64,000 nt of DNA from Eledone cirrhosa. Taxonomy: Eukaryota. The stretch lies in NCBI GenBank assembly GCA_964016885.1, contig OZ024751.1, positions 35,588,001 to 35,652,000 of the forward strand, in the 5' to 3' direction. Position numbers and translations under genes: made by a program. Shown here in pieces: positions 1-47,700 of the stretch. The notes under the pieces were generated by a model that was not told the DNA's origin, made no database searches, and worked only from the letters and a program-made list of their open reading frames with translations. How positions within the stretch are numbered: the first letter of the stretch is position 1; every line of letters begins with the position of its first letter.

Positions 1-939
1 TTTAACTAAGAAATAAGTTTAAATATTTGGAAGCCTGACAATGTATGTGAGATTATAAGTGCCAAGGTAATAAGAATTAGAGAAAATAGAATAAAAGAAC
101 TGAGAAAAGAGTGAGAATGGTAAAGTTTTACCTTAGCAATTTTATTAATCCCAAATACTTTCGGATTTACCATCCATTATCATTCCTTTATATATATATA
201 ATATACTTGATAAAACACATTTGTGTGTTGAGGGCACTGTTGTACTGTCTAACTTCATCTTCTCCTTTGAGCCTGATGCCACAAAGTGTATATACAGTCA
301 GGATTTTACATATATCTATACCCACTCTGCATCTCCCCATGAATTGAGTACTCCTATGATTAGTGGTCTCCTCAGTCTCAGCAATGCAGACTCTCTCTCT
401 CTCTCTCTCTCTCTCTCTCTCTCTCTCTCTCTCTCTCTCTCTCTCTCTCTCTCTCTCTCTCTCTCTCTCTCTCTCTCTCTCTCTCTCTCTCTCTCTCTCT
501 CTCTCTCTATATATATATATATATACACACATATACACAGCTATTTTCTTTTATTTAATATAAATATATAAATATGTTTAAAATTTCTCAAAATGTCTTT
601 TGATTCTATAAATTCCATTGTATTAGACAATCCATACAACTGGTGCCTTGTTTAGTTCAAAAATTCAGTTTGAATCTTATTTCTAAAGAATTTCTCATAT
701 ATTGAAACAAAATGCTTCTTGGGAAATTATAAAACGTGGAAAAAATTTGAGAACTTTTGTATTCTTTTAGTAACTTCTGTCCTAATCTAGTGAATCATAA
801 ATACATGGGGATATATTGTGCAATGAGATTTTAAATATGAATATATACAACAGGATTGTGTGGGAGACATTTTGAATATCTTCTTGTTAGATATAGAAGG
901 TGGAGTGGAAAGAAACTCCATATTGAAAATTACTTGTAA

Positions 940-1170
940 TGTTTGGCCTACTGTGATCACTTGGGACAACGCCAATGACCTGATATTCTTGCAAGATGCG
1001 GCCCCTCCCCCTCATATTACATGGACTGTCTGTGAGTGGCTTGACGTCCATATTTCCAGGATGCTGGCTGGGTCATCACGATCCACATGATTGACCAGCA
1101 AGAAGCCCTGACTTAATGCCAAGTGAATTATTTTTTTCCTGTTTGAGTGGGTGAATGAAGAAGTCATTTC
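940..1170 (+). mobile_element. Decayed Tc1/mariner-superfamily transposase fragment
   Basis: Frameshifted translation FLQDAAPPH...EWLD...PARSPDL matches the DDD/E motifs QDGAPPH and WPxRSPDL. Confidence 0.7.
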
Positions 1171-1328
1171 CATAAATAATAAAGATGCCTACACTCTATC
1201 AACGTATTAAGTACATTTATTAACTGTGACTACTAACACCCCTCCCTCCCCCCACCCGACCACCACCATTCAGGAACCTATATCTATCTATCTCTCTCTA
1301 TATATATATACATGTACATATATATATT

Positions 1329-44555: not shown

Positions 44556-44775
44556 AGTTCCATGACAAATTAGCCAACCATACTCAAGGACATGTGTTTC
44601 ACCTAGTGGATTTTCAACCCGAGAGAGATTGTGCTCAGGGTTGAAAATCCGCTAGGTGAAGCATGCGTCCTCGAGTATGGTTTGCTAATTTGTGGAACTA
44701 ACTCGCTACCGAACTCGTTCTCTGGACTGAGAGCTCTACTTACTACGGATATAACCTCCCGGTTTTTTTACCACT
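44556..44775 (+). mobile_element. Family P7 fold-back element in (TA)n
   Basis: ~65-bp inverted arms (44556-44620 / 44638-44700). GAA(A/G)CATGCGTC resembles a hammerhead 3' half, but no CUGANGA was seen. Confidence 0.45.
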
Positions 44776-47700
44776 ATATATAAATATATATATATATATA
44801 TAGAGAGAGAGAAATGGCTTCTAAGAAAAGCCCTGATGATTTCCTTCGAAGAAACAGTTCTAGTCCTGTAGAGCCATTTCTATATTAAAAATTTATACTC
44901 TATGTATTGAGTACCTTAGTTACTGTGGTTACCCCGGTTAAACCCGGGATACACATATCTATATATACATACATACATAGTAGGGCATGTGTGTATATAT
45001 ATATATGTGTGTTTTTAAATATATTCACAGGAAAAGTAAAAACGTATTTGTATCAATAATAACTTGATATATTATTTTAAATGATTTACTCTTCTCAGTT
45101 GCATTGTGTGTGTTTTATATTTTCAACATTGATCCTGTAAGTTTTATAAATAATTTAATGTTATTGAAAGAACTAGATAGCTCCAAGTGGTTGCTTGGAA
45201 ATCTGTCCTTGCCAACATGTCAGCACTTGTTACATATATCTGATGTAGCCTTTATTAAGAGGAACATTTGAAGTTGTAAATCTCTTCTAAGACACCCCTT
45301 TATCATATTCTTATATTACACATGTCTCTCTGTATGTGTGTGTATATATATAATCATATTATATATATTTATATATATATATATATAATCATATTATATA
45401 TATATATTTATATACACACACTGGAGCAATGCCAGACAATTTTCGGACTTAGACAAGGACAACTACTTGCAGCGCTGTCCCTCTCCCCCTCACACACACG
45501 TGTAGATATACACACACATTCTTGCCTACTTTGATTCCTCGGTGATTGGTACCCTAGGTGATTACTTAGATTATTTAATGGTAGCACCAGCCCTGCATAT
45601 ATATATATAGTAATAATATATTTAAAAAAACAAAATCCAGAGGGTACTCGATAAGGGTTGTATATATATATATATATATAAAGTATATATAAACCCGTAG
45701 AGCAAATATTTATTTTTATCACCTTGAGGAGGGTCATGAAACTCAGGGTGAAAGCAGAAATTATTTGCTTAAACTTTTAATGTGCTAATAAAAAATATAT
45801 ATATAAATATGTGTGTATGTGTGGAAAATGGATGTTAAACGATGATTATAGGTGTTTATACATATGAAGTGTTATGTGAAAACCAGTGCCCAGTGTAGGA
45901 GTGAACCATAAACAAGAATTGTACAGTGTCTCCTTAGATATAGAAGTGTGTGGCTGTTGAGATCTAAAAAGGTTGAAACTCAACTCTGTGTAGTTTTTCT
46001 TCCTTCTGCTGCTTGACACTTCTTGTTGATATCTAACTCAGCTTAGATGACATAATGTTGTGAAATATATACCTGGGTATGTGGAAGTGGCTTTATGTAT
46101 ATAACTATGTGTATATATATATATCATTCTACATTCCATACACACACATATATATATATACACTACACACACACATATATAATATATACCATTCCACCTG
46201 TTTGACCTCTAAACTTTCACCTCTGACCTCTTATGTTGTAATTCTAAAATATATTAAAACAAATTCCTTGGTTATTTCATTTTATTTCTTTTTTCTTTAT
46301 TTTTGTTTTGTTTTCTTTTTTTTTTTTAGTATTTTAATTTTCTCAAAATAATGGTCTGTCTGTCTGTCTGTCTGTCTCATAAGACATGGCAGCAGTCTGA
46401 TATCTGAAGCCACTAAAATAATGGTTTCTGATTTAGACACAAGACCAACTGTTTTGGGGAGGGGAATGTTACTGGTACTTTATTTTATCAACCCTGTAAG
46501 GATGAAAAGCAAAGTTAACCTTGGCAGGATTTGAACTCAGAATGTAAAGGGCTGTAAGTATATCCCACAAAGCATGTTGTCTGACGCTCTACCGATTTTG
46601 CCAATCCACCACCATTGAAGCCACAAAAAGTAATGAAAGACAATATGTATGGTCAGCATGAGTGGCGTAGAGAGAAGAGATTGGTATGCATGGGTGACTG
46701 CTGATCTTCCATAAGAACACCTTGTCTGGGCTTGTGCCTCAGAGGGGGTCTTTCCAGGTGTAAATCCCTTGGTCATTCGGGACTGAAGGGAGTCTTTATG
46801 CTGCTTTAGAATTCAATGATCTTCAAATCCAGGTAAACCCTGTTTCGGAAAATGCTGTAAGAAATGTTGTGATCCAAAGATTGAGCAAAGTGTGGTATAT
46901 ATTGTAGCAATAATCCTGTCATAAAGAACTGCTTGTAAATTTATAGAAATATTTTAAAGATGCCTGTGATTAAAAGAACCAAAAACTATTGCTCAGCCCC
47001 AGGAAGGCAATAAAGCCACTAAAATGCAAGAGGTTACTGAATAGAATCCTGTATATTGTCATAGGAAGGTAGGCTGACTATGAAAGGGGGTGATGCTAGT
47101 GCTGTGAAATCTTGCATGCATTAATTTCAACTCTTCTTTTTAATAATTGCGTTGTTTCTATACAGGAACTTGTTGAAAAATAAACCTCATTTGGTCATTC
47201 CATGAGAGTATCTTGGTCAGCTCATGAACTTTATAGCCAACCTTCATATGCCAGCACAAATCATTGAGAGGGCTTTTCAGCTGCATCACAGGTATGACAA
47301 CCTTCCTAGTGCTGGTGCCATGATAAAATGTACTCAGAAAAAAATAGGAATGCATGTAGATGAGTTTGAGTAATAAGCCAGTCTGTTAAGACATGTTCAG
47401 TGAGAGAGTACTGAATTATATTTCCAGGTGAGTGTTGTACAGCACTAATGCTGTTTGTGTATATATATTTATATATATATATATATATATACACATACAC
47501 ACAAATACATTCAGCCAGTTATCAGTAACTTTCCAAGCCAAGTAGTTTTTATATCCGAACTGGACAAACTACAATCCATTAGTAAAAATAACAACAACTG
47601 TTTCATAGTTTCCTAATAGTAACTCTACTAATTTAACTACTAAACTAACTCTACTAATTGTACTATTAATAAGGTAAAAAAGAACAAAAAAAAACTGAAA

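Follow-up and report, generated by a model that had tools for sequence, protein, structure and literature searches.

In a 64,000-nucleotide (nt) window of the Eledone cirrhosa genome (assembly GCA_964016885.1, contig OZ024751.1), a short motif of the form RCTCT...ATNGAGY recurs within repeat modules that otherwise differ from one another. Here we describe this motif as a bulged RNA hairpin that stands twice in the leader of Penelope-like elements (PLEs) of the Hydra clade, the ends of inserted copies lying just 5′ of one hairpin or the other; hairpin 1 denotes the copy nearer the ribozyme and hairpin 2 the copy nearer the start codon. An earlier note on the window had listed 12 sites, and the motif is present at all of them (12/12). 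As that note had supposed, the sites belong to dissimilar families, six in our classification (A–F), each with at least 1,000–2,700 first-look candidates in the genome.

In the window, family B is represented by head-to-head insertions at 3277..3476 (−), with hairpin 1 at 3348-3325 and a short arm that stops 5 nt before the hairpin position, and at 10399..10591 (+), with hairpin 1 at 10521-10544, and by insertions at 43516..43681 (+; 43610-43633) and 29927..30099 (−; 29998-29975). Family A comprises a head-to-head insertion at 25747..25960 (−) with a full hammerhead core (25876-25854) and hairpin 1 at 25810-25792, ends at 30375..30500 (−; 30436-30418) and 44810..44959 (+; full core at 44833-44854, hairpin 1 at 44897-44912 with a shortened upper stem), and an A-related head-to-head insertion at 23597..23780 (−; 23646-23627). 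The head-to-head insertion of family D at 24895..25099 (+) carries a variant-core hammerhead, hairpin 1 at 25016-25061, a tail and (TA)n; a second D copy, 26224..26303 (−), consists of hairpin 1 (26303-26262) and tail, and at 45646..45703 (−) there is a D-related hairpin 1 that has diverged and whose TA loop is expanded. Family C contributes a head-to-head insertion at 1325..1577 (+), in which an inverted short arm from 1325 is followed by a hammerhead, hairpin 1 (1520-1540) and a tail, and an end at 31347..31500 (−; 31426-31406). The family F hairpin 1 at 324..349 (+) belongs to a copy truncated near the ribozyme cut site, its tail running to about 390 and then into (CT)n, and the family E end at 17301..17376 (+), with hairpin 1 at 17301-17324 and a tail, is truncated about 20 nt upstream. 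The intact copies at 26262-26303 (−) and 29975-29998 (−) and the diverged copy at 45646-45703 (−) are additions to the original list. Decayed copies of the same families, with hairpin 1 damaged or deleted, are found at 1156-1228, 3571-3670, 10621-10760 and 30245-30322.

The pattern RCTCT N3-40 ATNGAGY has 17 matches in the window against 2.57 ± 1.8 (maximum 8) in 100 local dinucleotide shuffles, and a tighter form, RCTCT N3-40 ATHGAGYRC, has 14 against 0.21 (maximum 2). The terminal pair, described earlier as compensatory, is indeed a matched A-T or G-C in 16 of the 17 matches. Across the 3.0-Gb genome, RCTCTRN{5,30}ATHGAGYRC occurs 133,624 times, compared with 1,143 for the reversed-pattern control. 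Scans against Rfam returned nothing at E ≤ 0.05 for 20 loci, and for the window all of the best 150 of 258 matches fell below the gathering score, in agreement with the earlier failure to place the motif in a known family. The motif had further been placed after a ribozyme. This is so at 10 of the 12 sites, where a type I hammerhead or its 3′ half lies 25–34 nt upstream, but not at 324 and 17301, where the copies are truncated below the ribozyme. More precisely, GAAA-stem III-NUH is found 25–34 nt upstream in 9/12 sites (27 nt for 30416), site 1520 is preceded by a hammerhead core with a mismatched stem III, and the upstream ribozyme is often reduced to its 3′ half. The fixed hammerhead-to-motif distance expected from the note does not hold, since 25–34 nt in the window compares with about 41–55 nt in metagenome loci.

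The motif forms a bulged hairpin with a 4-bp RCUC/GAGY lower stem, a 2-nt UH bulge on the 3′ side and 2–7 further pairs, the upper stem opening with U-A or C-G and leading to a free loop; the 3′ flank is mostly ACU. The conserved ends and varying span reported earlier thus stand, but the supposedly open loop of 8–35 nt hides the upper stem, and the bulge and the pairing of copies had escaped notice. For a sample from outside this genome, metagenome contigs were scanned with an alignment of 40 Hydra-type proteins, yielding 78 loci about 38–45% identical to family D, of which the 57 whose match reaches the protein N-terminus were used (48 clusters at 80% nucleotide identity). Hairpins were picked by a rule covering the lower stem and bulge only, which in the 48 clusters matches 64 times in 8,926 nt of leader and 13 times in 88,258 nt of ORF (open reading frame) interior. 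The first upper pair is paired in 60 of 62 distinct hairpins (40 C-G, 19 U-A and 1 U-G; 76% in shuffles), the second in 65% of 57 and the third in 77% of 35 (41% in shuffles for both). None of 5,000 shuffles reached the values of pairs 1–3; the signal falls off at pairs 4 and 5, whose values were reached by 282 and 36 of the 5,000. In an alignment of 47 of the 50 hairpins from two-hairpin loci, from which both L314 hairpins and one of L349 were left out as mis-picked by the rule, 96.9% of cells are paired, with 38 double changes against 13.3; slid controls gave 22–58% paired. Because the shuffles ignore kinship, the pairs were also mapped on an ORF tree made solely of 23 of the 25 two-hairpin metagenome loci and families D and G. 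On this tree the first upper pair of hairpin 1 changes identity no fewer than four times, both partners changing together each time, and is paired in 25/25; that of hairpin 2 changes once. A covariance model built from the metagenome hairpins alone and run on the window identifies 11 of the 12 sites in the earlier list at E ≤ 5, 9 of them at E ≤ 0.11, and ranks them above background, with 17301 missed and 324 and 23625 weak. With covariation seen against shuffles, in the aligned hairpins and on the ORF tree, and enrichment seen in the window over shuffles, in the genome over the reversed control and in leaders over ORF interiors, the proposal of a second conserved structured RNA element is supported. 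Two linked changes in the family D hairpin 2 (L212:4154 and 4156), present in a subset of public contigs, create a C-A mismatch at the first upper pair; they probably reflect CpG decay and make a case against strict pairing.

Most motif copies are 100–250 nt long, lie within (TA)n and frequently carry an inverted arm on their 5′ side. Longer copies extend upstream through a 3′ untranslated region into a GIY-YIG endonuclease and then a reverse transcriptase (RT). By such extension, five of the six window families were traced to Hydra-type RT or endonuclease ORFs: family D in L146, L211 and L212, with intact ORFs of 709–713 amino acids (aa) in L285 and L286; family B in L064 and L243; family A in L441; family F in L444, an ORF fragment with an internal deletion; and family E, whose tail runs on into the ORF start (L174, L170). 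Variant hairpins accompany two further ORF-linked families, G (L007/L291) and H (L290), and one more such family in L443. Judged by these upstream ORFs, which could not be seen from the modules themselves, the window modules are cut-short, often head-to-head 3′ ends of autonomous, protein-coding Hydra-clade PLEs. The extension into ORFs rules out an independent non-autonomous family or retrozyme for five of the six families, and the head-to-tail units with a full hammerhead and no ORF that mark a non-LTR (long terminal repeat) retrozyme were not found, the window copies being single or head-to-head. A splice signal or an ORF overlap was likewise dismissed, with no conserved donor or acceptor and no frame open across families.

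The assignment to the Hydra clade rests on published protein marks, namely a single ORF with RT and C-terminal GIY-YIG in an element generally below 3 kb, an N-terminal RWK, DKT in place of DKG, a CxCX5C linker, and CxxC and CxH in the endonuclease, with CCHH absent (PMC8557442). Family D encodes a single RT plus C-terminal GIY-YIG ORF (713 aa in L286) in a unit of about 3.26 kb (L212), slightly above the usual size; it has RWR, a conservative variant of RWK, SDKT, a CNCRNRVDC linker, CDLC and CKH, with one cysteine within the GIY-YIG core, and family G follows the same pattern. Among 120 homologs, RW[KR] is found in 114, RWK in 81 and DKT in 112. By eye, RT4(B) is divergent in the manner of Hydra-2_Amil and Hydra-1_Ajap (FDVSMGASDSAEVTDL in family D versus FDVTMGSYDGAEVCEL in Fig. 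S1 of the published set). On these marks, the elements are new members of a known clade. An assignment to Nematis was dropped on the clade definition and alignments, the CX2-5CxxC linker, CCHH and DKG being absent from D and G. Neptune-type elements, which made up most of the results of a plain GIY-YIG search, were discarded as partners because their ends lack the motif; one such element of the same genome, L041, has DKG and the CX2-5CxxC linker and no hairpin. The hammerhead core, read from sequence, is canonical in A, C, G and H. Variant cores are a feature of abundant families: U3-A8 in B and F (L243, L444) and CAGAAGA in D (window 24940-24985), and in E no canonical core was seen despite stem I and stem III look-alikes (L160). 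The hairpin also occurs in about ten more low-copy families, in which inspection of the 95 nt upstream revealed no hammerhead (L072, L105, L117, L120, L158, L167, L218, L224, L290). At about 1440-1690 of L370 (−), three head-to-tail copies of a family A piece (hairpin 1 and tail, without the ribozyme) are arrayed.

The full leader runs in the order hammerhead, AT-rich linker, hairpin 1, spacer, hairpin 2 and ATG. Two hairpins are present in 25 of the 48 metagenome clusters, one in 14 and none in 9; among the 38 clusters with at least 150 nt upstream, the counts are 21, 10 and 7, and some of these clusters lack a true leader. Hairpin 2 lies 15–42 nt before the ATG in 24 of the 25 two-hairpin loci. 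The start-to-start distance between the hairpins is 43–83 nt in the metagenomes and 78–90 nt in families B, E and D. In E. cirrhosa, hairpin 2 is found at tandem junctions of D (L212, L289), E (L174, L170), B (L372, L374, L376) and F (L371 only); for B, the hairpin 2 pattern gave 9 matches versus 6 for the control, and of the 9, 3 proved to be genuine junctions that continue into an ORF. Six published consensus sequences were compared by eye (File S7 of PMC8557442): Hydra-1_Ajap starts 2 nt before hairpin 1 and contains hairpin 2, Hydra-2_Ajap and Hydra-2_Amil contain hairpin 1, Hydra-1_Crog has variants, Hydra-1_Amil ends before the hairpin position, and Hydra-1_Obim is taken up below. At the start of the copepod consensus Hydra-1_Crog, the variant hairpin has a GCCC/GGGC lower stem, a compensatory change in an otherwise invariant pair.

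Inserted copies stop at two sharp peaks, each 0–6 nt 5′ of one hairpin. Counted from the first base of hairpin 1, family D ends fall at −2 in 55/128 and at +87/88 in 42/128, with hairpin 2 at +91; family E ends at −1 in 15/38 (−4 by exact match) and +83 in 18/38, with hairpin 2 at +88; and family B ends at −5 in 37/115 and +78 in 67/115, with hairpin 2 at +79. Of the other two families with counts, A ends at −7..+1 in 44/95 and +57..63 in 35/95, and C at −10..0 in 19/52 and +56..61 in 32/52. Public contigs on the D junction exit to (AT)n at the same two places (at least 91 and at least 140 contigs), and of the 29 metagenome loci with a second leader copy, 11 of which are contig edges or tandem run-ons, 14 of the 18 informative ends stop 0–6 nt before a hairpin. 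In keeping with insertion into (TA)n, a microsatellite follows the ends in 106/128 (D), 102/115 (B), 30/38 (E), 64/95 (A), 44/52 (C) and 24/32 (F). In L153, L158, L166, L179 and L385, ends of different families are stacked in one (TA)n run, each beside an earlier insertion.

Each end shares 2–6 nt of TA with its target, which blurs the exact gap. With every end inside a short TA match, neighbouring TA microhomology alone might set the ends, the hairpins serving transcription, translation or packaging of the leader; the steady placement of hairpin 2 before the ATG and the internal promoter in Penelope pLTRs (pseudo-LTRs; cited in PMC11167929 and PMC8557442) would suit such a role. However, the 7- and 8-nt TA runs in the loop of the D hairpin 1, which are better matches, take only 5/128 ends, so TA microhomology alone does not choose the sites; the gap between end and hairpin stays at 0–6 nt while tail length varies over 43–90 nt; and a promoter role accounts for neither the covariation nor the insertion ends. 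We regard this explanation as very improbable.

Hairpin 2 is situated past the long end, and ordinary inserted copies lack it; it therefore likely acts on the template RNA. By the same token, it could set the long end only if the template extends across the pLTR-ORF junction. The motif might instead be read in DNA, on a single-stranded intermediate or a donor copy, by the GIY-YIG endonuclease, which would resolve the intermediate beside it. Craig et al. attributed the tail to endonuclease resolution (PMC8557442), the Drosophila Penelope endonuclease required the tail for recognition (cited in PMC11167929), and the G-U versus A-C counts favour neither strand. Against this, hairpin 2 would have to be copied and then precisely trimmed away, and the compensatory changes speak against plain recognition of double-stranded sequence; a DNA signal is in our view decidedly unlikely.

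Close head-to-head pairs (n = 136) overwhelmingly combine the two kinds of end: 115 are long+short, 3 long+long, 2 short+short and 16 other. These counts bear on a further possibility, namely that the hairpins are signals for cutting or ending the transcript, be it by the element protein or a host nuclease, with reverse transcription beginning at the RNA 3′ ends so produced. The position of the insertion ends, directly 5′ of each hairpin, fits this equally well, and Poseidon RNA-seq reads also end at the two start sites (PMC11167929). Yet independent ends predict many long+long and short+short pairs, and only 5 of 120 classifiable pairs are of these kinds; a cut 5′ of hairpin 1 would strip both hairpins from the template; and Poseidon initiates internally on uncut RNA in vitro (PMC11167929). 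We consider transcript cutting unlikely.

Among the options raised in the earlier note, an RT-recognition signal is the best fit to the sequence data, because insertion ends map just 5′ of each hairpin. We propose that the twin hairpins are probably an RNA signal bound by the element's RT-endonuclease, placing two reverse-transcription starts. In this scheme, one transcript across the pLTR-ORF junction would carry both hairpins, and the protein, probably as a dimer, would cut both strands of the (TA)n target. Each cut DNA end would pair, over 2–6 nt of TA, with the AU stretch that immediately precedes one hairpin on its 5′ side, and would then be extended; both complementary DNAs would usually stop early and join head to head. 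An arm begun before hairpin 2 would carry hairpin 1 and the spacer, i.e., the "tail", and an arm begun before hairpin 1 would have none, so that the use of both hairpins in one event would leave one tailed and one tailless arm. The window modules would then be aborted products of such events rather than an independent family of small elements. A broader version is conceivable, though we hold it with less than even confidence: the doubled hairpin, kept throughout the Hydra clade in hosts as far apart as corals and sea cucumbers, would bring the two halves of a dimeric RT related to telomerase onto a single transcript, and both ends of the cut (TA)n target would be copied from two programmed internal starts.

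Several observations weigh against the recognition of twin hairpins by RT. Some concern the reach of the signal. The upstream-extension search for family C reached no ORF, leaving C untied to a Hydra ORF; families A and C yielded no true junction when searched with hairpin 2 patterns; 7 of the 38 metagenome clusters with at least 150 nt of upstream DNA have no hairpin; and the Hydra-1_Obim consensus shows no recognisable copy by eye (PMC8557442 File S7). Furthermore, 4 of the 18 informative metagenome ends fall outside the 0–6 nt interval before a hairpin, and most loci were retrieved with queries containing the tail, so that long ends are over-represented; this bias should favour long+long pairs, not long+short ones. 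The Neptune-type family has two sharp ends without the motif, and the signal is clade-specific at best. In L041 (−), a minimal hammerhead with a U3-A8 core is accompanied by sharp ends 68 nt apart (11/30 and 13/30), both followed by loosely similar C-rich stretches in place of the Hydra hairpin, and a different twin signal may operate there. Other points concern the fold. In hairpin 2, pairing at the second and third upper positions is seen in only 10/20 and 8/13. Single hairpins are marginally stable: 2 of 12 window sites beat 98% of shuffles, and the others have folding z values of −0.05 to −1.6. In all four two-hairpin leaders folded (4/4), long-range pairing was preferred over two local hairpins, and on these predictions the hairpin fold probably needs protein. 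Finally, the lower stem is nearly invariant, with 61 of 62 metagenome closing pairs being G-C, and because it is also part of the search rule, it provides no covariation evidence in those sequences.

The window also contains, at 37611-41006 (+), an intronless open frame of 1,131 aa rich in tetratricopeptide repeats, likely a host gene exon, and, at 4351-8189, a minisatellite with a 22-bp unit that is repeated about 175 times and is strongly strand-skewed.

How a Penelope protein chooses its template and why only one arm bears a tail are standing questions that the twin hairpins address; one in vitro study had given two start sites and no signal (PMC11167929). A short, doubled, clade-wide hairpin at an exact distance from each end makes the origin of the Penelope tail directly testable. 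If the broader version holds, the twin hairpins would be the cause of both the one-sided tail and the head-to-head structure of PLEs, other clades would have twin signals of their own, and a hairpin of roughly 20 nt would offer a portable "start here" tag for insertions copied from RNA. Penelope-like RTs are the sister group of telomerase, and an RNA element recognised by them would bear on the evolution of template boundaries. In practical terms, the motif marks the ends of Hydra elements, with more than 130,000 genome matches, and would fix their boundaries in repeat libraries.

RT-recognition hairpins are familiar from the 3′ stem-loops of stringent long interspersed elements (LINEs) and of their short interspersed elements, from hepadnavirus epsilon and from the template-boundary stems of telomerase RNA; they are small, often bulged, RT-bound and placed beside the copying start. 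The hairpins described here would resemble them in design, and they are doubled where those are single. The LINE stem-loop, moreover, lies 5′ of the start and is copied, whereas here each hairpin lies 3′ of its proposed start and would not be copied from it.

Earlier work already covers Hydra elements together with their hammerheads, (TA)n target sites, one-sided tails and inverted copies (PMC8557442). Our elements match those of Craig et al. 2021, including Hydra-1_Obim and Hydra-1_Ajap, in having the same ORF with DKT, CxCX5C, CxxC and CxH, a type I hammerhead in the pLTR, (TA)n targets, partial tandems, inverted truncated copies and the one-sided tail; they differ in tails of 43–90 nt rather than 30–40, and in that several families have variant ribozyme cores and units above 3 kb (PMC8557442). 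The term "stem-loop" does not occur in the text of that paper, and the hairpins go undescribed there, though they are contained in the sequences of its File S7. No description of the hairpin was found among the papers listed by full-text searches of the open literature or in passages of PMC8557442, PMC11167929, PMC4209133, PMC7229834 and bioRxiv 10.64898/2026.07.22.740005; this scope excludes subscription journals, Repbase reports and figures, as well as the retrozyme preprint's supplements, which could bear on novelty. Within it, nothing appears to have been written on the doubled hairpin, on its clade-wide covariation or on the one-to-one correspondence between the hairpins and the two insertion ends.

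Animal non-LTR retrozymes are similar in being short type I hammerhead sequences related to PLE pLTRs, but they form head-to-tail tandems, unlike the single or head-to-head modules here, which are variably truncated ends of coding elements (PMC7229834; 10.64898/2026.07.22.740005). The closest mechanistic parallel is with the Poseidon protein of Anolis (Frangieh et al. 2024), a predicted dimer that cuts and extends both strands at AT-rich DNA, uses two internal starts bracketing the tail and requires RNA 3′ of those starts (PMC11167929). Two internal RT starts around the tail, an AT-rich target and extension of both strands would thus be common to the two systems. [quoted passage not shown]

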